Below, in pieces: positions 3,367 through 25,206 of a stretch of 64,000 nucleotides of DNA. Each line of letters begins with the position of its first letter. Position 1 is the first letter of the stretch. The notes under the pieces were generated by a model. It worked only from the letters and a program-made list of their open reading frames with translations. It did no database searches and was not told the origin of the DNA. This DNA comes from Escherichia coli. Lineage in GTDB: Bacteria; Pseudomonadota; Gammaproteobacteria; Enterobacterales; Enterobacteriaceae. The position numbers and the translations under genes were made by a program. The stretch is from assembly GCF_030013595.1 (NCBI RefSeq), contig NZ_CP122768.1, one strand, 5' to 3'.

Positions 3367-5465
3367 AACCATCCTCCGGAAGTCAGCCAGGGGTTAACAT
3401 CGTCAGTTACTGTTTTCTTCCGTTTTTGTTTTTTAACAGGCGTGGATACCGGTTCCGGTGAGGATGACGGTTCGGTACTGTCCTGGACACACTCCAGCCA
3501 GGTTTCCCGGCTCGCCCACTCCGGTGCATCCGGCCAGCGGATCTTTTCGTATCCATGCAGAATGACCAGAGCCTCGGCATACACCATCAGGTCAAAAGCT
3601 TCGTTGGCACCGCGACCAGGCTTACTCCATTTCCCGTCACTGCTCCGCTCTTCATACGTCAGTTCGTCGTAAAACCAGCTCCCCAGCCAGTCAGGGAAAT
3701 GCACATAGCCGGGACCTGGCGAGTCACGCCATAACGCGTTATTCACCCGGTCTTTCAGTGCATCCGTCTGAAGAAGCCAGAGCGGCACATCACCTGCGGC
3801 CTGCGCCCGTCGGCCCGTTCGTCCGGTGTTATCAGGGAATGTACGAGTGATCAGTTTTGCGCGCCGGATGCTGTCGCCCTTAAACAGGTAAATACGTTTA
3901 CCAAGGCCATCACGACGGCAACGACGCCAGAATTTATAGGCATTATCAGTGACCCCGTCTTCACCGCCGGAGTCCACCGCCATTGCCATCAGTCGCATTT
4001 GTTGAGAAGGATCGGAGGCCAGCGGCCAGCTTTTATGAAAAACATCCGTCAGCAGGACATCCCAGTCTTCCGGATAGCTGGCCGGATCAATTCGCTGGCT
4101 CTCCCCGTCGCTGTCACCGCGCAATGACTGCGTGATGTTGTAACGATCAATAATCCAGCGTTCGCCACGGCTGCCATAGCCCGTTACCTGAACCACAAAA
4201 CGGCGATGACGTCCCGCCTGCACATCCACTGTCGCCACAAGGAAATTAACGCCATCCGGCACACTGCGGGAAGGAACTGGCTCTGCCCGCTGCTCAAGCA
4301 GTTCACTTTTTCGTTGCTCCATGCTGGCGCGGGGAAGATAAGGTAATCCCCAGTCGGTATTGATAACCGTCTTGAGTGTTTCTTCACTTCCGGTTGTCTC
4401 GTATTCCTGTTCTGCAGTAAGCAGTTTGTAAACGAGTTGCGAGAGTGTCTGGTAAGCAGCTGCCGGACCCTCCATCCAGAATGACGCAATACGTGAGCGT
4501 CGGGGATCACCATAACGACTGCCATCCGCATTGATGGATTCACCATCCCGCAACCAGACCCCACGTCCGTTCAGCTCACGTTTTTGTTCAGGCATAATCC
4601 GTCCTGAACAGGAAGGGCACTGAATATAAGCCGCCTCACTTGCCAGCACGGGATCGGCAATATCACGGAAACCAGCAACCACATCGCCGCAGGGCTGAAA
4701 ATACTCACCACAGTGTGGACAGGGCCAGTACCAGCGACGGCGATCACCACGGTTATAGAGCGACAGGATCCCCGTGGTTGGTGGAGCCTCATGCGGTGAA
4801 GTCCGTCGCCATTTCACATCCTTCACATCCCTGCCGGGGGAACTCTCCACCAGCGTCATACCGCTGGACATAAATGTGGTGGTACGTTTTGAGGCAAGAG
4901 AGAAAGCATCCCCCTCGCCATCAATATCTTCCGGAAAACGGTCATAATCCGTCAGCGCGACGCATTTATAATCTGATGAGGACATGATATTGACTGACGG
5001 CCAGCCGATTTTCAGGTAGTTACCAGCAAGGAATGTTCTGTCATAAACGTTGTTGTCATTTTTGTTCGGACTCAGGCGACTGACCACTTCCGGGCTGACG
5101 CGAAACGTTCTGGCAAGTCGTTTTTTGGAGTGTTCGCGGGCTTTTTCCTCCGTCATCTGAATGATCAGCATATCAGCAGGATCGCAAATCACGTTGTAAA
5201 TCACCCAGCCGTCAATCAGGCCGATAGTCTTGCCAGTTCGTGCCGGGCCAACAAATATCACTGCGTCGTATTCACGCGAGGCCAGGCAGTTCATCGGCTC
5301 AATAACATACGGTGCCACCAGCGGATCCCACGGGACTGAGTTCCCTGCCCCCATGGGCACCCGCATATACTGAGCAACGGCATCAGCAACCCGCATTCGT
5401 CTCGGTGCGCGAAGGATATAACCTGAATCGGTTCGTGCTGCCTTTGCGGTTTCCTGATTCAGCAT
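3363..5465 (-). CDS. Terminase large subunit (GpA-like)
   Basis: 700-aa ORF with ATPase P-loop VGPARTGKT, directly downstream of the small subunit. Confidence 0.9.
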   Translation of the reverse strand: MLNQETAKAARTDSGYILRAPRRMRVADAVAQYMRVPMGAGNSVPWDPLVAPYVIEPMNCLASREYDAVIFVGPARTGKTIGLIDGWVIYNVICDPADMLIIQMTEEKAREHSKKRLARTFRVSPEVVSRLSPNKNDNNVYDRTFLAGNYLKIGWPSVNIMSSSDYKCVALTDYDRFPEDIDGEGDAFSLASKRTTTFMSSGMTLVESSPGRDVKDVKWRRTSPHEAPPTTGILSLYNRGDRRRWYWPCPHCGEYFQPCGDVVAGFRDIADPVLASEAAYIQCPSCSGRIMPEQKRELNGRGVWLRDGESINADGSRYGDPRRSRIASFWMEGPAAAYQTLSQLVYKLLTAEQEYETTGSEETLKTVINTDWGLPYLPRASMEQRKSELLEQRAEPVPSRSVPDGVNFLVATVDVQAGRHRRFVVQVTGYGSRGERWIIDRYNITQSLRGDSDGESQRIDPASYPEDWDVLLTDVFHKSWPLASDPSQQMRLMAMAVDSGGEDGVTDNAYKFWRRCRRDGLGKRIYLFKGDSIRRAKLITRTFPDNTGRTGRRAQAAGDVPLWLLQTDALKDRVNNALWRDSPGPGYVHFPDWLGSWFYDELTYEERSSDGKWSKPGRGANEAFDLMVYAEALVILHGYEKIRWPDAPEWASRETWLECVQDSTEPSSSPEPVSTPVKKQKRKKTVTDDVNPWLTSGGWL

Positions 5466-5995
5466 TACTCCTCCTGCTGTAATTCCTCCTCATCATCCGC
5501 ACCTGCTTCAGTCACCCGCAGGGCTATCTGATCGCGCAGATCATCAATAATGGACTGAACACGGCTCACAGCGGCAGGCTGCAGACCGCAGTCACGTTCA
5601 AGAATATCCGGTAATGTCTCCAGCACCTGCACGACCGCTTTTACCCAGATGGCAAACTCCCGTCTGACATCACTGGCCGGAATGAGTTGTGCCGTTTCCT
5701 GTTCGAACTTAAGACGCTCACGTTCAGACTGATACCAGGCTTTGCGCTCATGCGCGTCCATTTCGCCTTCTGCAACCGGCGGAGGTAATGCCAGAAATGC
5801 CGACACAATATCAACCACCCGATAAAGCTTGAGGTTGCTTTCATGCCCCCCTGCAACGGGTAGATTTTGCAGCCTTGCCGCAGCAGTCTGGCGATGTACA
5901 CCTGACAGTGCCGCCAGTTGACTGATATTCAGCGTCAGATTTTTTAACTCTCGATCCATACCCGCTCCAGAATGTTTTAAACATGCATCTTGCAA
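5465..5995 (-). CDS. Terminase small subunit (Nu1-like, N-terminal HTH)
   Basis: 176-aa ORF; LNISQLAALSGVHRQTAAARL HTH and acidic C-terminus; true start may be the internal Met (MDRELKN). Confidence 0.65.
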   Translation of the reverse strand: MQDACLKHSGAGMDRELKNLTLNISQLAALSGVHRQTAAARLQNLPVAGGHESNLKLYRVVDIVSAFLALPPPVAEGEMDAHERKAWYQSERERLKFEQETAQLIPASDVRREFAIWVKAVVQVLETLPDILERDCGLQPAAVSRVQSIIDDLRDQIALRVTEAGADDEEELQQEE

Positions 5996-6373
5996 ACAAC
6001 TTTAGGCAAACGGTGTCAGTGATGAACAAAAAACAATCAAGATCGACACCATGAAAATAAAACAGCTGTAATATCAATTAATTATAGTGGTGGTGATGAC
6101 GGATAAAATTTCAAAAACTAGCCTTTTTCCGCGACGCTCCCGCCCCGTGGCAAGGCCACCCCACCGGGAGGACCCATGAAAAATGAGAGAAATTATCATT
6201 TATGCTCAATTAAACATCAGCATTATCGCAGCCCCTCACTGAAGGACTGCTGTAATGCTGATTGTTCAACATCAAAAAACCCAATCTGTTGCAAGTTATA
6301 AAAGCAACAAACGACATTGCGCGTTAAGATTTTCTTAATATTTAAGAAATATATTTTTTAATCTCATTTATTT

Positions 6374-6967
6374 TTGCAAAAGACTTTTCATATGCAGCGT
6401 CGAGAAATAAAGAAAATTACTTATTTAATCACTTTGATTTTAACTACTCTTTTGTTTGTTTATTTTTTAAGAACACCCACCACAATCAATATGAAACAGG
6501 CGCATAAAATAAATCAACAACACCAGACAATTTTCCTTATCCGTCACGGTGAACGATGTGACAGAAGCAAAAATGCATGTCTCTCAAGCAATAAAGGAAT
6601 TACCGTCAATGGTGCCATTAAAGCTCATGATTATGGAAAAATATTTAGCAATACTTTCCCGTCATTCAGCCTTTACTCCACGGATACCATACGGACAATG
6701 CAGACAGCCTGTTTTTTCTCTGGAGGAAAAGCAGCCTCCCGGATACCGTTGGCTGCAACATGCGGACTTGATGCTGCAAAGGACATACTCAAATTGTCAT
6801 CCGATAATAAAACTACCGTTATATTCACCCATAATCATTGCCTGACACAAATAGCAAAAAAAATGAAATGGTGGAAGTTAAAGCCAGAATATCTTGAAAC
6901 ACTGGTTCTTCATATCGAAAACAATCGTCTCATTCTTGACGGAAAACTGACTCACGATAAAGCGTAA
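6374..6967 (+). CDS. Secreted histidine phosphatase, Ais/PmrG-like (moron at the lambda bor position)
   Basis: Hydrophobic N-terminus, then LIRHGERCDRSKNACLSSNKGITVNG ... VIFTHNHCLTQIAK, matching the RHGE catalytic motif and overall pattern of Ais. AT-rich, opposite strand to flanking late genes. Start ambiguous (6374, 6392 or 6491). Confidence 0.7.
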   Translation: MQKTFHMQRREIKKITYLITLILTTLLFVYFLRTPTTINMKQAHKINQQHQTIFLIRHGERCDRSKNACLSSNKGITVNGAIKAHDYGKIFSNTFPSFSLYSTDTIRTMQTACFFSGGKAASRIPLAATCGLDAAKDILKLSSDNKTTVIFTHNHCLTQIAKKMKWWKLKPEYLETLVLHIENNRLILDGKLTHDKA

Positions 6968-7038
6968 CAATCATTCAAAGAGTCAACATATTTTCTGCAT
7001 TAACCCCGAACAGTTCCTCTGCCGGGGTTTTGTATTAG

Positions 7039-7422
7039 TTATCGCCTCAACTGAAAATGCGGTCCGTCTTTCAGGCTGGTCCACTCCCCGCCCCATTCGA
7101 TGGCAGTTCCCAGCTCTGCGGCAGCCTGCTTAAATGCCTGCGCGATTTTCTCGTACAGAGGCCAGTCCCATGACACCTGGCTGCCAACCCAGGCCACAAC
7201 ATCCACCGCATCACCGGTCAGGTGGCGGCTGTTCATGGTCTGGCTCTTGCCTTCTGCAACCAGCTGTTTCTGGCGTTCTTTCGTGCGCAGGCCTTCCGTA
7301 ATACCGAAATCAACCTCCGTCAGCTCCAGCGCACGGCGAACGACAGCAACCAGCTGTGGTTTAACGCCCTCCAGATTTTTCTCGCTCCGACGACTGAATC
7401 TGAATTTACCCGACATATTCAC
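7039..7422 (-). CDS. Endolysin, peptidase M15 family (L-alanyl-D-glutamate peptidase type)
   Basis: 127 aa with SRHLTGDAVD ... DGPHFQL metal-binding signature; last gene of the lysis cassette. Confidence 0.8.
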   Translation of the reverse strand: MNMSGKFRFSRRSEKNLEGVKPQLVAVVRRALELTEVDFGITEGLRTKERQKQLVAEGKSQTMNSRHLTGDAVDVVAWVGSQVSWDWPLYEKIAQAFKQAAAELGTAIEWGGEWTSLKDGPHFQLRR

Positions 7423-7694
7423 CTCAACAATGGAAAGATTTTTGTGACGTTCCCGCGTGCGCGTATCACCAGCACGCAGAACAGCAGATTAAAAAACACT
7501 TCCAGCCAGCCCGTTGCTAACGGGCGACCACACAGATAGCTGAGGGGCGCAAAGGCATACAGCAGCATCAGCAGCCAGGCCAGCCATGACATCAGCGGTT
7601 TGTGCGTGGCATCTTTTCGGCGATAAAAAAAGAACGTCAGCACGATAACCGTGCATAACGCCACATTCAGCAATCCGGGAAGGTTACTTAACAT
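7419..7694 (-). CDS. Small membrane protein of lysis cassette (putative holin/antiholin partner)
   Basis: 91 aa, two or three hydrophobic helices; overlaps both neighbours. Confidence 0.5.
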   Translation of the reverse strand: MLSNLPGLLNVALCTVIVLTFFFYRRKDATHKPLMSWLAWLLMLLYAFAPLSYLCGRPLATGWLEVFFNLLFCVLVIRARGNVTKIFPLLR

Positions 7695-8076
7695 TGCCGC
7701 CTCCTCCGCCCCTCAGGCGGGAGAACAGGCCGGACACCAGTGATGCGATATCCTGCTGGTGGATGAATGACAGAATCTTCACTGACACCACCGATACCAG
7801 CACCGCACACAGCGCATCTGCCGATGTACCGTCATACCCTGTTTTTGATGTAATCCAGGCTGACAGTACACGTGCTCCCAGCACGCCGACGATAAACGAC
7901 ACCAGAAAATGCGCCGCCACACGCCAGGCGGAAATCTTCTGCGGCACAGTTGCCACAAACAAAGCCCCCGCGAACGCACCAAACACAATCCCGAAATCCG
8001 TTCCGGTGAACAGCCCGAATACCGTCGCCCCTCCGAGCGCAGCCGCCGTGCCGGAACCGGATAAGGGTTCAGACAT
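7684..8076 (-). CDS. Putative holin
   Basis: 130 aa, Gly/Ala-rich TM helices and charged C-terminus; first gene of the lysis cassette. Confidence 0.6.
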   Translation of the reverse strand: MSEPLSGSGTAAALGGATVFGLFTGTDFGIVFGAFAGALFVATVPQKISAWRVAAHFLVSFIVGVLGARVLSAWITSKTGYDGTSADALCAVLVSVVSVKILSFIHQQDIASLVSGLFSRLRGGGGGNVK

Positions 8077-8534
8077 ACTTTTTTCTCCTGTAAATAAAAA
8101 AGGGCCACCAGCGGCCCGTAAAAAAACAACACCCCGTCAAAGGCACCCGCAGATACCTTTTGTGTGGTGTATTCAGATTTGACATACGCTGAGCAGGGCG
8201 AAGAAATGAAAAAGGCCCGCAGTAGCGAGCCATGAAGAAACTGAATAAAAAAAACCGCCTGGTACGGCGGTTAAGATGAATTTCCAGGTTTTGCTTAATA
8301 CGTGATTAATCTCAACGTTTTTTATAGATGTTAACAACATCGGAATGATGCATCACCGGCCCTGTCAGGAAATACAAAATCTCCACCGATAATGCACCAT
8401 TACGCTGTTGTAAAAAGACAGCACTGGACTGTAACCGATATCACGTATTACAGAACAGGATGTGGATAAAGATTCAGGAAAACATCCCACATATAATATG
8501 TCAGTGCCCAAAACAACTTGGTATCGTCTACTGC

Positions 8535-8609
<75 letters not shown>

Positions 8610-9026
8610 ATACTATGCGGTCTTCAGTAATCACACGAATTACCGTGAAAGCCAGCACTGGTCTTTCCGACGGTAGTAACACCCCTGTGAACACCAAAAT
8701 AACCGTCTTCCAGACCGACGAGAATACTAACGACATTTTTTCAGATATCAAAAATATATTTTGTTTTTAGTTTTTAATATATGTATGCATCTGTATCAGA
8801 AATATACAATTTATATCATTACTAAATTAAAAACATTTCTCTGACGTCTGATTAAAACGTTCCTGTTCCAGTTCCGCGCCAATCACACATGGTCATTGCG
8901 TTTTACCAGTCCATCGCCACTATCAGGCTGACCAGGGGACGCCCCACCCGAACTGCTGAGAATGCCAGGCACACAAAGAATAATGCCCGCCAAAGCGTTC
9001 CTGCATACAATGACTGCAAAATTCAG

Positions 9027-9878
9027 TTATTCTTGAGCGGAGCCAGAACTCATCTCACTGAATGCAGCCATCCTGTAACCTTCCGGGGTGACCCCAAAAT
9101 AACGCCTGAATACACTGATAAAATAAGATGTATTATTATAGCCACACTGCACAGCGATTCTGTTGATGGCACAGCTATATTGATGCAACAGCATTGCTGC
9201 CATTCTCATTCTCTCCGTAAGCAACAACTCACTGAAACATGTGCCTTCTTCTTTCAGTCTTTTTTTTAACAAACTTTCACTCATACATAACCGTGATGAC
9301 ACATCTCGCAGAGTCCAGTTTGCTGCAATGTCTGTATGAAACAACGCACCAAGCCTGCCGCTGATAGTACTGATACACGCGGTCATAAACGACGAAAACA
9401 TTTTATCTGATGAAAAAAACGCCAGACACGAAAAGGAAAGCATTTCCGCTAAATTGTCCGTATGAATCTTTTCCTCATAAAGATAATCAATCAGGATGCC
9501 CATCAATTCTGGCCTGGGAAAACTCATGCAAAGATATCGTGGCATTTTCCGGACTAAAACAACATCCTGTTTTACCCCACTACGCAACAGGTAACGGCTA
9601 ATTGTCGATTCACTGAGACTTATACGCCGAAAACATTCAGAAAAGGGCAATAACGGTCCAGCCCCTCCCCTGACAAGAAGTGCACTACCACTTTCCAGAG
9701 AGAGTACTTTTCCTTCGAAGAGCACAACAAACGGGGAATGAACAAAAATAACAGAACAGGCCTCATTCATATCAATATCCCTGACATTACTGGTCGCAAG
9801 ATAAGTATATATCACTTTACAAAAATGCAAGCCGTGAGCCCCGAATTCACGACCACCAGCGTGTTTACTGTACTGCAC
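9027..9878 (-). CDS. AraC-family transcriptional regulator (AppY/Rns-like), moron
   Basis: C-terminal AraC HTH (LRDVSSRLCMSESLLKKRLKEEG ... VQCGYNNTSYFISVFRRYFGVTP); AT-rich; start uncertain (internal Met MNEACSVIFV possible). Confidence 0.8.
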   Translation of the reverse strand: MQYSKHAGGREFGAHGLHFCKVIYTYLATSNVRDIDMNEACSVIFVHSPFVVLFEGKVLSLESGSALLVRGGAGPLLPFSECFRRISLSESTISRYLLRSGVKQDVVLVRKMPRYLCMSFPRPELMGILIDYLYEEKIHTDNLAEMLSFSCLAFFSSDKMFSSFMTACISTISGRLGALFHTDIAANWTLRDVSSRLCMSESLLKKRLKEEGTCFSELLLTERMRMAAMLLHQYSCAINRIAVQCGYNNTSYFISVFRRYFGVTPEGYRMAAFSEMSSGSAQE

Positions 9879-10274
9879 CAGGTTTACAGGTACAAAAAAC
9901 CGCTCGACGGCGGGTTTAAGCTGTGTGGCGAAGTAACCACTCTTAACAGATTAAGATAAAATTTGCGGACCGCGGTAATTTTTTTTGCTAAATTAAAGCC
10001 ATATAAAAAAAGATCCATAAGAAATTATTAGTATACTAAGGTTTAACATGGCTACTATTGCGCAATCAAAGAAACAAAAAAACTTAAAATTGGTTTTTAC
10101 ACCAGCAGTTCTGGGACTATCCGCAGCCATTCAGTTGCTAAGCAAGCAATTGAAAATCTGTATAATACTTGCGTAACCGTTACGAATAATCATTTTGATA
10201 CCATCTATAGAAATAAAAAGTTAAAAATAGCTTTTATAAATAAAGATACAAAAGCTAAATATTTCTTCGGCTAC

Positions 10275-20083: not shown

Positions 20084-20620
20084 ATGTCATTTATTAAAAC
20101 TTTTTCCGGGAAGCATTTTTATTATGACAAGATAAATAAAGACGACATCGTTATTAACGATATCGCGGTTTCCCTTTCAAATATCTGCCGCTTTGCCGGT
20201 CATCTTTCTCACTTCTACAGCGTCGCCCAACATGCGGTGCTTTGCAGCCAGCTGGTGCCGCAGGAATTTGCTTTTGAAGCTTTAATGCATGATGCAACAG
20301 AAGCATATTGCCAGGACATCCCCGCACCACTGAAACGACTTCTTCCTGACTATAAACGGATGGAAGAAAAAATAGACGCCGTAATCCGTGAGAAATACGG
20401 GTTACCTCCTGTTATGAGCACGCCAGTGAAATATGCCGATCTCATTATGCTGGCAACCGAACGCCGCGATCTCGGGCTTGATGATGGCTCTTTCTGGCCT
20501 GTGCTGGAAGGTATCCCGGCAACAGAGATGTTCAACGTGATTCCACTGGCTCCAGGCCATGCCTACGGGATGTTTATGGAACGCTTTAACGAATTATCGG
20601 AGTTACGCAAATGCGCATGA
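20084..20620 (+). CDS. HD-domain phosphohydrolase, YfdR-like 5'-deoxynucleotidase
   Basis: MSFIKTFSGKHFYYDK... with H...HD motif (AQHAVL ... MHDATEAY); recalled as near-identical to CPS-53 YfdR. Start set at internal ATG of ORF 20021..20620. Confidence 0.8.
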   Translation: MSFIKTFSGKHFYYDKINKDDIVINDIAVSLSNICRFAGHLSHFYSVAQHAVLCSQLVPQEFAFEALMHDATEAYCQDIPAPLKRLLPDYKRMEEKIDAVIREKYGLPPVMSTPVKYADLIMLATERRDLGLDDGSFWPVLEGIPATEMFNVIPLAPGHAYGMFMERFNELSELRKCA

Positions 20621-20973
20621 ATGTTTTCGAAATGGAAGGGTTTCTTCGTGGGAGATGTGTACCGCGAGATCTGAAAGTGAATGAAACGGATGCTGAATAC
20701 CTAGTGCGTAAATTCGATGCGCTTGAAGCTAAATGTGCAGCACAGGAAAACAAAGTAATACCAGTGTCAACTGAACTGCCACCAGCAAATGAAAGTGTTT
20801 TGTTATTTGATGCTAATGGAGAAGGCTGGCTGATTGGCTGGCGTTCTCTCTGGTATACATGGGGGCAAAAAGAAACCGGAGAATGGCAGTGGACATTTCA
20901 GGTCGGGGACCTTGAAAACGTCAATATCACTCACTGGGCAGTAATGCCAAAAGCACCGGAGGCTGGAGCATAA
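20611..20973 (+). CDS. Hypothetical prophage protein (YfdS-like)
   Basis: 120-aa ORF overlapping neighbours in an operon. Confidence 0.55.
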   Translation: MRMNVFEMEGFLRGRCVPRDLKVNETDAEYLVRKFDALEAKCAAQENKVIPVSTELPPANESVLLFDANGEGWLIGWRSLWYTWGQKETGEWQWTFQVGDLENVNITHWAVMPKAPEAGA

Positions 20974-22000: not shown

Positions 22001-22030
22001 GGGAAGCAATAAGCTTCCCTTCTCTTTATT
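22001..22030. terminator. Hairpin terminator between convergent xis operon and AIPR gene
   Basis: GGGAAGC-aataa-GCTTCCC followed by T-rich tract. Confidence 0.45.
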
Positions 22031-23726
22031 TAGGTACGCTATCAACACTTTTGAGAATCGTTGATGTTAAAGGCTGCGACTTTAGTAAGTCTCGAGAAAT
22101 ATCCGGATCTGGTATAGCTATTTTTACTAAACTCTCAAGTTTTTCAAACCACTCCCCATCATTCATTGAGAATAAGTTATGAAGAGCTTCATTTTTATTT
22201 TTGAACCCCCAAGCCTTATAATTATTACCACAGTATTTTGACGCAGCAGTTAGAATATGCCAGCGTAATTTTGAATACTTCCCATCAAACCTCTTATTTG
22301 AGATAAGAGCCTTTAGCCTATACAAGCAATAGCAAGATATATAATAATCATCCTCGAGGGCATCGGAAGAGAAAACCTCATTAAGTAAGTCACCAGTTAA
22401 CCTATTTGGATAACGACTGGAATAATCTGGTCTCATCATAACAATAGCAGCATATGCTCGCGCAACTTCTCTGATATCAAATATGCGTACTGGAGCTATA
22501 CTTTCTGAACTATACTGCCCCTTTCTTCTCTCAAAATAAATTTTATTTCCTTCAATAGCACCTTTAGCATTAAAATAATGTTCTAATTCCCTTAATTTTT
22601 TTAGCGTTGAAATGAACTGTGCATCTTCAACTTTAGATTGTCTATTCGTAGCTCGTACAATGTCATCAAGGATCGCTGGCTCATCGGTTTCAATTAATTT
22701 AATCATTAAACTAACTGATTCATCTACTTGAATGTCTTTTGATATAAGAACATTAGACGTTTGACATCCATTAACAATTTGAAAATCTCGTATAAAAATT
22801 TCTTGCCCTGCAGGCCTCACGCTTGATGCAACTATTGTCACTCCATTATTCATTAAACCAAATCTTGCTTTTTTTCCATCAGTATCTAGTGTTCCTGCAA
22901 TTTCTGAATTTACGTCACCATCAATTCCCAGAAAATCTCTAACATTTTCTTCGAATAATTTTTTTCGAGGGTTTCCATTTTTGTCTTTAAGTATAGAATC
23001 AATAAAACTACGAGCTTTGACTGTAGCTACATAGGCATTATTAATATTAGGGGCCGCTGGGAATGGAGCATAGCCTATTGTAGGAAGTTTAGCTTCTATT
23101 GGACCTTCCGCAGCAAGCCAAAGCTCATGAATCATGTCTTTGTGAGCCATAATGAAGGATGTTTCATGTGAAAACCCGAGTGACTTTAAGCTTTTTTCAC
23201 CCGATGCAAATGCAGCTTTTATTTCTCTGGCCTCTGTATTTTGTGCAGCACTAAAAAAATATGCGTATAAGTCTGGAAGGCCATTTTTGACTCTGCCGAT
23301 ATTAGCAAATATCAAGTTGAACATTTTTTTAAAGTCCGCTAGATATTCACTGTGGGGTTGTTGTGGCGCTGGTGAAAGATAATCTCTTATTGACGCAATG
23401 TAAGAGTCTATTTCCTGTTTGCTCCACTTCTCCGATGACTTAGCTTGCGTGAATACTAATGAAACTTGAAACTCGCGACGTGAGTTTTGGAAAATCTCCT
23501 GAAGTTCTTCAGTTGAAAAAATGGCTCTGTCGTCTAAAAATAAAAATGCTCCATCAATACCAGGGTCCGGGCCTTCATACACAAGATCACTGACCTCAAC
23601 TTTGTCGCCTGAGTATTTTGAAAAAGCACAATAGTTCACAAACGCCTCAAAATTTTTGGTCTCCTCATAGGGCGCAGCGAATGCTTTGCAAAAGGCATCG
23701 AAATAAGATTTCGTGACTAAATGCAT
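22026..23726 (-). CDS. AIPR-family abortive infection protein
   Basis: 566 aa from ATG at 23726 (AAGGAG Shine-Dalgarno 7 nt upstream); FGLMNNGVTIVASSV ... FQIVNGCQTSNVL resembles the AIPR core; very AT-rich. The ORF-track N-terminal extension is translation of AT-rich upstream DNA. Confidence 0.7.
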   Translation of the reverse strand: MHLVTKSYFDAFCKAFAAPYEETKNFEAFVNYCAFSKYSGDKVEVSDLVYEGPDPGIDGAFLFLDDRAIFSTEELQEIFQNSRREFQVSLVFTQAKSSEKWSKQEIDSYIASIRDYLSPAPQQPHSEYLADFKKMFNLIFANIGRVKNGLPDLYAYFFSAAQNTEAREIKAAFASGEKSLKSLGFSHETSFIMAHKDMIHELWLAAEGPIEAKLPTIGYAPFPAAPNINNAYVATVKARSFIDSILKDKNGNPRKKLFEENVRDFLGIDGDVNSEIAGTLDTDGKKARFGLMNNGVTIVASSVRPAGQEIFIRDFQIVNGCQTSNVLISKDIQVDESVSLMIKLIETDEPAILDDIVRATNRQSKVEDAQFISTLKKLRELEHYFNAKGAIEGNKIYFERRKGQYSSESIAPVRIFDIREVARAYAAIVMMRPDYSSRYPNRLTGDLLNEVFSSDALEDDYYISCYCLYRLKALISNKRFDGKYSKLRWHILTAASKYCGNNYKAWGFKNKNEALHNLFSMNDGEWFEKLESLVKIAIPDPDISRDLLKSQPLTSTILKSVDSVPK

Positions 23727-23982
23727 AAAAACTCCTTTCTGAAATAAGATAAGTTTATTAGAAACAACAAGATAAAGATAAAGATAATAGTAATACAAGT
23801 TAAAGACATACTGCATCACATAAGTTGGTCAAGATCAATAAATCAATAAGGATCCCCTATGTTTTATGTATTGTTGATAATTCTATCACCTCTTACTTCT
23901 GGTCTAAGCGTAACCTACTCAAGAATGCCATTGAAAATGTCCACTGTTCGCTCAAAACAGACTGTCAGGGCTACGCAAGCTG

Positions 23983-25206
23983 TCAGGTAGATTCTGGGCC
24001 AGTACAAGTAACGATCGATTCAACTCTCTCCCACCATGCCTGATATGCTTTACGCTGTTCTTCTAGATAATCGCTCTTGTCATAAACCTGCCAAACCCCT
24101 GGCAGTTTATGGCCGAGCATTATTTCTGCAATATGAGGAGCAGTAAGATCAGAAAAGTTTGTTCGTGCTGTTCGCCTCAAATCATGAAGAGACCAATGAG
24201 GGAATTGATGCCCCAAACGCCTCCATGCGTACTGCATTAAATTGTAAGGCAGCGACTGCAATGATGTTCGACCAACGGGTTCCCTGCTTCCTTCCTTAGT
24301 AAAAAGCATATCGGAACCATTGTTCATAGAGATAGCGTTCTTTATAAGCTCCTCCACCGGTTCAATAATGGGCCTCTTTAGCGGTTCGCCTGTTATCTCT
24401 CCAGTCTTATGTCGTTCTGGTGGTACAGTCCATACCTTATTAATGAAATCAAAATCGCCCACCCTGGCAGTAATTAGCTCTGAACTACGGCAGCCAAAAT
24501 GCAGCAATAGCTTAATGAAGGCCCGGTATTTAGGAACCATTCGAGAACCATCGATCGCAGAATAAAGGATTTTAATTTCATCATGTGTCAGAAACCGTTT
24601 CTTCTGACCTTTACGGATATCCATATCTTTACCCGTGATATCCGACAGCGGGCGAGTTTCAATGAGCTTTCTCTTATACGCCCAGACATGGGCCTGCTTT
24701 GCGTTAATTAGCAATCGGTCTGCTATTGCTGGAGTCTTAGTGCTAAGAGGCTCCAGGACTTCTAACCAATCATGCAATGTAGCTGCATCGTGAGGGATAT
24801 TCCCGATTTTAGAGAACAGGTGCAGCTCAAACGAGCGGAGTATCTGTTCAGAACCTTTTTTATTTTTTACACAATATGCTTCATACCAGGCACGGATCAC
24901 AGACTCTACCGTCATGGCTTCAGTAGCTTTTCGTTTTTCAGCCTGCTTGACCAATCGTGGATTACGGTTTGACTCAAGTTCACCACGGAGACGGATAACT
25001 TCTTCTCTGGCCTCTTTTAATCCAGTTGCCGGGTAAGTTCCGATATCAAGACGCTCACCTTTCCCTGCCCATTGATAACGATATTGGAACACTACGCGAC
25101 CTTTCGGTGATACTCTGACAGACAGACCATCACGATCGGATTTAACCAAAACCTTATCACGTTCCTTTCCAACGACTGAACGCAACCACGCATCAGACAA
25201 CGCCAT
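23983..25206 (-). CDS. Tyrosine integrase (P4-type)
   Basis: 407 aa; C-terminal catalytic region HDLRRTARTNFSDL ... HIAEIMLGH ... VYDKSDY. Confidence 0.9.
   Translation of the reverse strand: MALSDAWLRSVVGKERDKVLVKSDRDGLSVRVSPKGRVVFQYRYQWAGKGERLDIGTYPATGLKEAREEVIRLRGELESNRNPRLVKQAEKRKATEAMTVESVIRAWYEAYCVKNKKGSEQILRSFELHLFSKIGNIPHDAATLHDWLEVLEPLSTKTPAIADRLLINAKQAHVWAYKRKLIETRPLSDITGKDMDIRKGQKKRFLTHDEIKILYSAIDGSRMVPKYRAFIKLLLHFGCRSSELITARVGDFDFINKVWTVPPERHKTGEITGEPLKRPIIEPVEELIKNAISMNNGSDMLFTKEGSREPVGRTSLQSLPYNLMQYAWRRLGHQFPHWSLHDLRRTARTNFSDLTAPHIAEIMLGHKLPGVWQVYDKSDYLEEQRKAYQAWWERVESIVTCTGPEST

Follow-up and report, generated by a model that had tools for sequence, protein, structure and literature searches.

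Within a 64,000-nucleotide (nt) stretch of Escherichia coli DNA (contig NZ_CP122768.1; hereafter the window), positions 7039–8076 hold the lysis cassette of a lambdoid prophage that lies between prfC and yjjG, near the leuQPV tRNA genes. The cassette is a late lysis module of the type known from phage phiP27, and consists of three co-oriented genes on the minus strand, overlapping or abutting one another, each with database matches far beyond chance (Table 1). An original prediction, made from the sequence of the window, had proposed a three-gene cassette here with an M15 endolysin and two membrane proteins, and had further claimed that no spanin-sized gene follows the endolysin and that an Ais-like moron on the opposite strand fills that slot; Pfam and PHROG matches together with hydropathy bear out the first claim, and the open reading frames (ORFs) and NCBIfam model NF011945 the second. 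Our computational analysis shows that the prophage is without a phage-encoded outer-membrane step, apparently through replacement of the responsible gene by the moron.

Table 1. Features in and around the lysis cassette. Coordinates refer to the window unless a related locus (L number) is named.
Feature	Position	Strand	Evidence or remark
Terminase small subunit gene terS (DUF1441)	5465–5995	−	PF07278 E=3e-41; phrog_141 E=1.5e-74
Q-to-cos module	6176–11462		ais-like gene, cassette, tRNA-Gly, AraC-like gene, DUF6731 gene
Low-GC moron segment, 0.8 kb	6201–7001		breakpoints against L033, L087, L084; GC profile
Ais/PmrG-like lipopolysaccharide (LPS) core heptose(II)-phosphate phosphatase, 191 amino acids (aa)	6392–6967	+	NCBIfam NF011945; PF00300 His_Phos_1
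G+C-rich hairpin	7002–7029		10 nt past endolysin stop; fold −19 kcal/mol, z=−2.7
Predicted M15 L-alanyl-D-glutamate endopeptidase endolysin, 125 aa	7039–7416	−	PF13539 Peptidase_M15_4 E=9e-12; phrog_465 E=1e-73
Phage_holin_3_7 protein, 91 aa	7419–7694	−	PF05449 E=7.9e-21; phrog_217 (holin) E=3.6e-37
Phage_holin_8 membrane protein, 130 aa	7684–8076	−	PF16931 E=5.7e-24; phrog_198 (holin) E=3.9e-42
Three intrinsic-terminator-like hairpins directly upstream of first holin gene	8102–8272	−	last adjoins holin ribosome-binding site
tRNA-Gly(UCC), prophage-borne, upstream of cassette	8535–8609	−	ARAGORN
Antiterminator Q	11459–11836	−	PF06530 E=5e-52
Ais-like moron, phage GER2	L099 4229–4501
Ais-like moron	L035 7591–8208	−
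60-aa lipoprotein	L087 3128–3307
60-aa lipoprotein, phiP27	L001 4325–4513	−
60-aa lipoprotein	L098 3001–3183
Small membrane protein between endolysin and lipoprotein	L004 2903–3076	−
Small membrane proteins between endolysin and lipoprotein	L095 2641–2844 and 2862–2996

The first gene of the cassette encodes a Phage_holin_8 protein with three to four hydrophobic stretches by hydropathy and 87% aa identity to L28 of phiP27; from its family, it is the predicted holin or the holin's partner. The start of the second gene overlaps the end of the first by 11 nt, and its Phage_holin_3_7 product, with three hydrophobic stretches and a cationic C-terminus, is class-I-like. Small size, a transmembrane domain, a charged C-terminus, and an endolysin gene as neighbor, all of them characteristic of holins, are present (Pfam and PHROG matches, hydropathy), and profile searches of the 91-aa and 130-aa proteins, which the original prediction had suggested, gave these two families. 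We found no functional or experimental study of PF16931 or PF05449 proteins in the literature. For the third gene, the endolysin, the PF13539 match scores 45.8 bits against a cutoff of 25. An ORF finder begins this gene at a GTG at 7422 (127 aa); we favor the ATG at 7416 (125 aa) as the probable start, given the RefSeq annotation of near-identical copies and a GAGG ribosome-binding site. Over its full length, the protein aligns with solved L-Ala-D-Glu endopeptidases (8q2g; 5opz, Serratia ChiX; and 2mxz, T5) and contains the zinc motif H-x6-D...H (SRHLTGDAVD...GPHF), and by fold and zinc ligands this predicted M15 endolysin is a member of the L-Ala-D-Glu endopeptidase family. Hydropathy shows no signal or signal-arrest-release (SAR) sequence and no hydrophobic stretch in the endolysin, which therefore needs a hole-forming holin to reach the cell wall.

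Past the endolysin stop stand a hairpin and then a segment of foreign character, with a GC content of 30%–43% as opposed to 51%–58% in its neighbors. On the plus strand the hairpin is followed by a T-run (TTTTGTATT), and so it is probably the terminator of the ais-like gene; it is common to those relatives that carry a gp53-like gene (see below), and homology to them stops just beyond it in alignments with locus L087 and A10. The ais-like product scores 205 bits against NF011945 (cutoff 142) and contains the histidine-phosphatase motif RHGERCDRS, whereas its score of 112 against the PmrG equivalog lies below the cutoff of 170, which makes it a member of the subfamily and not a PmrG equivalog; the RefSeq annotation of copies that are 99.6%–99.8% identical agrees with the call of an Ais-like phosphatase. 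The protein has an N-terminal membrane anchor or signal, and its gene is convergent with the late operon. With its position on the opposite strand, its own hairpin and T-run, its atypical GC content, and its absence from relatives that share both flanks, the ais-like gene has the features of a moron, and it is best read as a lysogenic-conversion passenger rather than a lysis gene. Ais-like morons (61% identity) also follow complete Rz/Rz1 cassettes in the Shiga toxin (Stx) phage GER2 and in the IMG/VR locus L035, which makes the slot the usual “bor-position” site for morons. In L035, the insertion of the ais-like gene clipped the start of a 60-aa lipoprotein gene.

The search for an outer-membrane function combined homology and signal-based scans. 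In tblastn searches of the whole window, queries from six spanin types (lambda Rz, Rz1, T1 gp11, a Klebsiella pair of inner- and outer-membrane spanins [i-spanin and o-spanin], and the phiP27 candidates) returned noise only. Lipobox scans, which took every start codon in six frames and looked for a signal peptide and lipobox under relaxed criteria, covered positions 1–26000 of the window, the complete 37-kb sister prophage in RM10740, and the A10 locus. The same scans recovered their positive controls (the lambda-type Rz1 of Ecol_224, the Klebsiella o-spanin, and the phiP27 lipoprotein), and they gave nothing in or near the cassette and no credible candidate in any of the three targets, only short out-of-frame fragments. 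There is no spanin-like ORF in 5995–8540 or elsewhere in the prophage part of the window. For a two-component o-spanin, a small lipoprotein with a lipobox cysteine, both the lipobox scans and tblastn came up empty across the window prophage; for an i-spanin, with its N-terminal transmembrane segment and periplasmic domain, 5995–8540 holds no ORF of that design, and tblastn with lambda Rz and the Klebsiella i-spanin gave noise; and for a unimolecular spanin of the T1 gp11 type there is no lipobox ORF and again only tblastn noise. The possibility raised at the outset, that an embedded or unimolecular spanin had been missed, is rejected by these results, and the all-frame search that had been named as the refuting check brought up spurious out-of-frame fragments and no embedded lipoprotein ORF with spanin features.

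Individual ORFs fail on inspection. The nested 55-aa ORF at 7489–7656, inside the 91-aa gene, has aspartates in its would-be signal-peptide core and no lipobox, and the nested 47-aa ORF at 7071–7214, inside the endolysin gene, has no valid signal peptide or lipobox. An L31-like ORF (6983–7096) runs over the 3′ end of the endolysin gene; its N-terminus is conserved only through lying inside that gene, and its C-terminus differs in every relative (47, 62, 71, and 106 aa). Nor was a disruptin-like conserved cationic peptide gene found in the lysis region. The only strongly cationic ORF on the late strand (8069–8233, 54 aa, net charge +11) spans the three terminator hairpins and is not conserved, being absent or frameshifted in most of 88 related loci, and so it is not a disruptin.

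We compared the cassette with relatives in 80 IMG/VR loci whose Phage_holin_8 protein is at least 92% identical at the aa level, 75 of which are informative. After the endolysin, a 60-aa lipoprotein gene is found in 56 of the 75, an IS66 insertion in 10, Rz/Rz1 in 5, LT-II toxin genes in 2, and other content in the remaining 2. The window has the phiP27-type order of Phage_holin_8, Phage_holin_3_7, and endolysin genes, co-oriented and overlapping, and the fourth gene of phiP27-type cassettes, that for the lipoprotein (phrog_7528), is absent from it by tblastn and flank comparison. The lipoprotein gene starts 14 nt past the endolysin stop in 22 loci and is preceded by a gene for a 57-aa gp53-like transmembrane protein in 26; 52 of 57 copies are intact, with the mature-peptide consensus CVSLDKARQLFDTASQVCeivDgVRQClQN. 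The same order, with an endolysin of either the M15 or the GH108 type and the lipoprotein behind it, also occurs in Cronobacter, Salmonella, and one metagenome, and one such locus has a 4-nt overlap between the endolysin stop and the lipoprotein gene. In a more distant branch, from Klebsiella, the endolysin is a different one and is followed by overlapped i- and o-spanins. From these gene orders, the cassette family would normally have a fourth, envelope-targeted gene, and the window is without one.

Lipoproteins of this family begin with a long n-region of cationic character, followed by an LVGC lipobox and a mature peptide of 30 aa in which three cysteines are invariant. In E. coli, Salmonella, Citrobacter, and Cronobacter, holin_8/holin_3_7 cassettes have such a gene in fourth place almost without exception; annotation invariably calls it hypothetical, its product is too short to qualify as a canonical o-spanin, and in many cases no candidate i-spanin lies close by. 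Neither the lipoprotein nor the gp53-like protein belongs to a Pfam or NCBIfam family, and both match only PHROGs of unknown function (phrog_7528 and phrog_4493); in a search of 5.8 billion proteins, the only names were “hypothetical” or “lipoprotein,” in Enterobacteriaceae. Homology of the lipoprotein to the Klebsiella o-spanin was sought, and none was found. The gp53-like proteins (phrog_4493, phrog_1115) are 57–67 aa long with a cationic N-terminus and a C-terminal hydrophobic segment, and Cronobacter has an additional 44-aa transmembrane protein between endolysin and lipoprotein; such small membrane proteins could be partners of the lipoprotein.

Comparison of the flanks points to how the fourth gene was lost. 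Loci L033, L084, and L087, whose terS is the same (99% identity), match the window on both flanks but hold (gp53-like)–lipoprotein–L33 in the interval from 7002/7047 to 6200 of the window. Just past the hairpin, the A10 copy, which has diverged by ~10%, has exactly the same junction, and this indicates a single older event. The Q-to-cos module is swapped as one piece: in the Ecol_224 prophage (L003) its place is taken by essD-rrrD-Rz/Rz1 (blastn), and the backbone outside the module is 98.6%–99% identical to that prophage. Because relatives nearly always have the lipoprotein or Rz/Rz1 after the endolysin, the absence of an outer-membrane gene from the window looks like a secondary loss by moron replacement and not like a design without an outer-membrane step. 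As a route, recombination through a shared hairpin between an Rz–ais donor and an M15 flank does not hold up, the post-Rz hairpins of L035 and GER2 being unrelated to that of the window. In prophages carrying the LT-II toxin (L029 8522–9550; L007 7523–8551), the ORF after eltAB starts with ~30 N-terminal residues of an M15 endolysin, fused to a terminase small subunit; this suggests that insertion of the toxin operon together with a GH108 endolysin took place upstream of an older M15 cassette, into which a deletion then extended.

The junction is found in a narrow set of hosts. The full three-gene cassette is present in 303 of 5426 complete E. coli genomes, and the ais module, with the junction between M15 and ais, in 28 of them, at 40 places and up to three times per genome; 26 of those 28 carrier genomes are of pig origin. 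The ais module is nearly confined to pig-associated E. coli, namely enterotoxigenic (ETEC) and oedema-disease lineages O139:H1 and O141:H4. It occurs at three or more chromosomal sites (prfC, thrW, and one adjacent to zinT), and its neighbor in all contexts examined is the M15 endolysin, directly adjoining and unaccompanied by a spanin. At the prfC site it is found in the window and in K_EC180, where the prophage is degraded; at thrW it is in the complete-looking prophage of RM10740; next to zinT it is in a remnant in ETEC6333; and in A10 it is in an intact-looking prophage with different head genes.

We consider it reasonably probable, then, that the cassette is a phiP27-type module that encodes only the first two steps of lysis, its outer-membrane gene having been replaced by a moron, with rupture of the outer membrane brought about by outside factors. 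Going by the family assignments, Q-antiterminated transcription would express the Phage_holin_8 and Phage_holin_3_7 membrane proteins, probably as a holin/antiholin or two-part holin pair, and would yield along with them the cytoplasmic M15 L-Ala-D-Glu endopeptidase, which would reach the cell wall through the holin lesions. The prophage would thus provide the inner-membrane and peptidoglycan steps only, with the ais-like moron in the place where ~80% of close relatives have the 60-aa lipoprotein, with or without a small transmembrane protein, or canonical Rz/Rz1. Final rupture would rely on factors outside the cassette, candidates for which are shear or osmotic stress, gut bile or low divalent cations, and spanins from co-induced resident prophages. 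Lambda Rz/Rz1 mutants lyse under shear or low divalent cations and otherwise arrest as spheres; for a prophage in the gut, the loss may thus be tolerable, or made good by spanins borrowed from co-induced prophages.

Several points weigh against this reading. Lysis by this prophage is a prediction from its genes, and its head and tail genes lie beyond the window and are checkable only in sister prophages. The outer-membrane disruption role of the 60-aa lipoprotein is a SpaninDB prediction, and the lost gene may therefore not be a lysis function at all. In a collection of 50,697 phage records, the M15–ais junction appears in no isolated phage, and two of the five junction copies examined lie in clearly degraded prophages: K_EC180 has terL through the tail genes deleted, and ETEC6333 retains only a terS remnant, beside IS3. 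In favor of persistence, the cassette ORFs are intact in all contexts examined, and the ratio of nonsynonymous to synonymous substitution (dN/dS) of the M15 gene against relatives is low, at 0.05–0.18; we nevertheless reject this ratio as a sign of selection after the loss, since among copies with 96%–97% identity in M15 the neighboring ais gene is 99.7% identical, and the low values may come instead from recombination with other cassettes.

On another reading, the cassette would be a relic, in which gene loss was part of prophage decay and productive lysis is no longer completed. The same module sits in the degraded K_EC180 and ETEC6333 prophages, no isolated phage has the junction, and among other variants without the lipoprotein there is clear damage, from IS66 insertion or, in the LT-II prophage, from the terS fusion. 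Against decay, the window has full-length terS, terL, portal, Q, replication, and integrase genes that are 98.6%–99% identical to those of an apparently complete prophage, the junction prophages of RM10740 and A10 have complete-looking structural regions, and the junction persists at three or more integration sites and, with intact ORFs, in the 10% diverged copy. We regard a relic as unlikely, though a reading to be taken seriously.

The holin_8/holin_3_7/M15 system might also be inherently spanin-independent, with the genes found after the endolysin in relatives being unrelated passengers. The lipoprotein and gp53-like protein do fall into function-less PHROGs, together their periplasmic parts are shorter than a canonical spanin requires (phiP27, at 62 residues, is the shortest in SpaninDB), and the slot is a known moron landing site for LT-II genes, KilA-N, and ais. 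Passengers would hardly be expected, however, to be co-oriented with the cassette and coupled to it as tightly as the lipoprotein gene is (at +14 nt or by a 4-nt overlap) across E. coli, Salmonella, Cronobacter, and metagenomes and behind either endolysin type, and other branches have canonical spanins in the same slot. The original prediction, in offering spanin-independent lysis as one way to account for the locus, was right about the absence of spanins, but inherent independence is neither shown nor the best reading, given that relatives nearly always have a fourth gene; we rate its chances as low. Speculatively, the 60-aa lipoprotein family might also be a new, non-spanin class of outer-membrane disruptor, of which the window would be a natural knock-out.

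A further idea gives the moron itself a role. Mg2+/Ca2+ bridges between LPS core phosphates stabilize the outer membrane, and it is mainly at high divalent cation concentrations that lambda spanin mutants are blocked. Removal of the Hep(II) phosphate by the Ais-like phosphatase might thus weaken divalent-cation bridging, such that the outer membrane fails once the cell wall is gone. The M15–ais junction recurs in at least four prophage contexts and persists through 10% divergence, and the protein, assigned with confidence to the LPS core heptose(II)-phosphate phosphatases, has an N-terminal anchor or signal that would place it in the envelope. On the other side, the gene runs toward the late operon and ends in a terminator of its own, as is usual for a moron expressed in the lysogen; late read-through would produce antisense RNA against it; and such morons do not depend on spanin loss, since homologs follow complete Rz/Rz1 in GER2 and L035. 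Compensation of this kind appears very improbable to us, and we would call it a long shot, too, that the loss was tolerated as the phosphatase does part of the job by pre-conditioning the LPS core of the lysogen. If true, such pre-conditioning would be a new enzymatic route to spanin-independent release, and would explain why the M15–ais junction recurs in several backbones in pig-associated E. coli.

That a spanin was simply overlooked, whether embedded in another frame, unimolecular, or elsewhere in the prophage, has precedents in the Shewanella phage LambdaSo, whose spanins had escaped notice as ORFs nested between the genes for holin and endolysin (bioRxiv 10.1101/2024.01.23.576932), and in the 196 unannotated o-spanins added by Kongari et al. 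(PMC6139136), but is scarcely credible here and largely refuted by the empty lipobox scans with their three recovered controls, the tblastn noise, and the failure of the nested 55-aa and cationic ORFs.

Q is the presumed driver of transcription through the lysis genes, and the triple hairpins ahead of the first holin gene fit a late operon requiring Q antitermination, though Q lies ~3.4 kb upstream. Downstream of the lysis region, the structural or packaging genes begin with terS, followed by terL and the portal gene. The tRNA-Gly(UCC) gene sits between the moron region and the cassette; related prophages have Gly, Gly+Thr, or Ile+Thr+Gly sets there, and the same tRNA is found upstream of the cassette in SerU-LTIIb, ETEC6333, A10, and RM10740. 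Between Q and the cassette lie low-GC cargo genes, for an AraC-family regulator (9027–9878, minus strand) and a DUF6731 protein (10275–10988, plus strand), as well as a third cargo ORF (10992–11435, plus strand, 147 aa) with no family match; the sister prophage in RM10740 has an additional ompC porin gene in this region. Farther away, a gene for an AIPR-family protein, of abortive-infection type (22026–23819, minus strand), adjoins that of the prophage integrase (23983–25206).

Among known systems, the closest is that of phiP27 (an Stx2e phage), in which L28–L30 correspond to the three window genes, in unchanged order and with identical overlaps, at ~90% nt identity, and in which the cassette likewise lies between the Q/moron region (with stx2e there, and tRNA-Gly and the AraC-like gene in the window) and the terminase genes. 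phiP27 differs in having ~1.3 kb more, including the 60-aa lipoprotein (the SpaninDB o-spanin), whereas homology in the window ends at the endolysin stop (about 7047), with the ais-like moron coming after it. In the list of Kongari et al., the two-component spanin of phiP27 is of the “separated” kind and, at 62 residues, has a shorter periplasmic span than any other (PMC6139136); it is made up of a 64-aa i-spanin at 20348–20542 of the record and a 51-aa lipoprotein o-spanin at 20706–20861 (PMC6139136). The SpaninDB ORF for the 64-aa i-spanin (L001 4644–4838, minus strand) lies antisense to a 90-aa ORF (4582–4854, plus strand) that matches phrog_36812 (E=5e-20) and has 46%-identical homologs in loci L044 and L048. 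Antisense to that ORF, with no PHROG match and found in no other locus, the phiP27 “i-spanin” is probably spurious.

The LT-II prophages Rac-SA53 and SerU-LTIIb resemble the window in having the same two holin genes, an endolysin, and then a moron directly, with no spanin annotated; they differ in that the endolysin is of the GH108 type, the moron is the co-oriented eltAB toxin operon, and terS has suffered deletions and fusions. The S-R-Rz/Rz1 cassette of lambda and the DLP12-type essD-rrrD-rzpD/rzoD share with the window the Q-to-cos slot and the three-step logic, and the moron that follows is convergent in both cases (bor in lambda, ais-like in the window), but their holins are of unrelated families, their endolysins are a transglycosylase or lysozyme in place of an M15 peptidase, and the window has no Rz/Rz1. 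A close homolog of the endolysin is found in the chiWXYZ cluster of Serratia marcescens, whose ChiX is an L-Ala-D-Glu endopeptidase (5opz, E=8e-42). ChiWXYZ is a domesticated secretion system that keeps the spanin-like ChiY and ChiZ.

The window cassette belongs to the recognized class of spanin-less lysis systems, which accounts for about 13%–15% of phages (PMC6139136; bioRxiv 10.1101/515445), and phages of this kind are already known. As in the spanin-less phages of Kongari et al. 2018 (about 13% of Gram-negative phages), and as in phiKT, holin and endolysin stand here without an identifiable spanin; phiKT, however, has the disruptin gp28, whereas the window has no disruptin-like conserved cationic peptide gene. 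The case also differs from those phages in that the absence can be traced to a replaced gene that relatives keep, and in that it concerns a temperate lambdoid prophage and not a virulent phage. How the outer membrane is breached in spanin-less phages is an acknowledged open problem, to which this case adds little mechanistically. What it does offer is a natural comparison in a tractable host, with the same cassette found together with the 60-aa lipoprotein, together with Rz/Rz1, or without either, in some cases on near-identical backbones, which makes it testable whether the lipoprotein, as part of the shortest spanin in SpaninDB, is a real outer-membrane lysis factor, and what losing it costs. 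Finally, it marks the slot after the endolysin as a moron landing site at which virulence or surface-modifying genes, such as the LT-II and ais-like genes, can displace a lysis gene.

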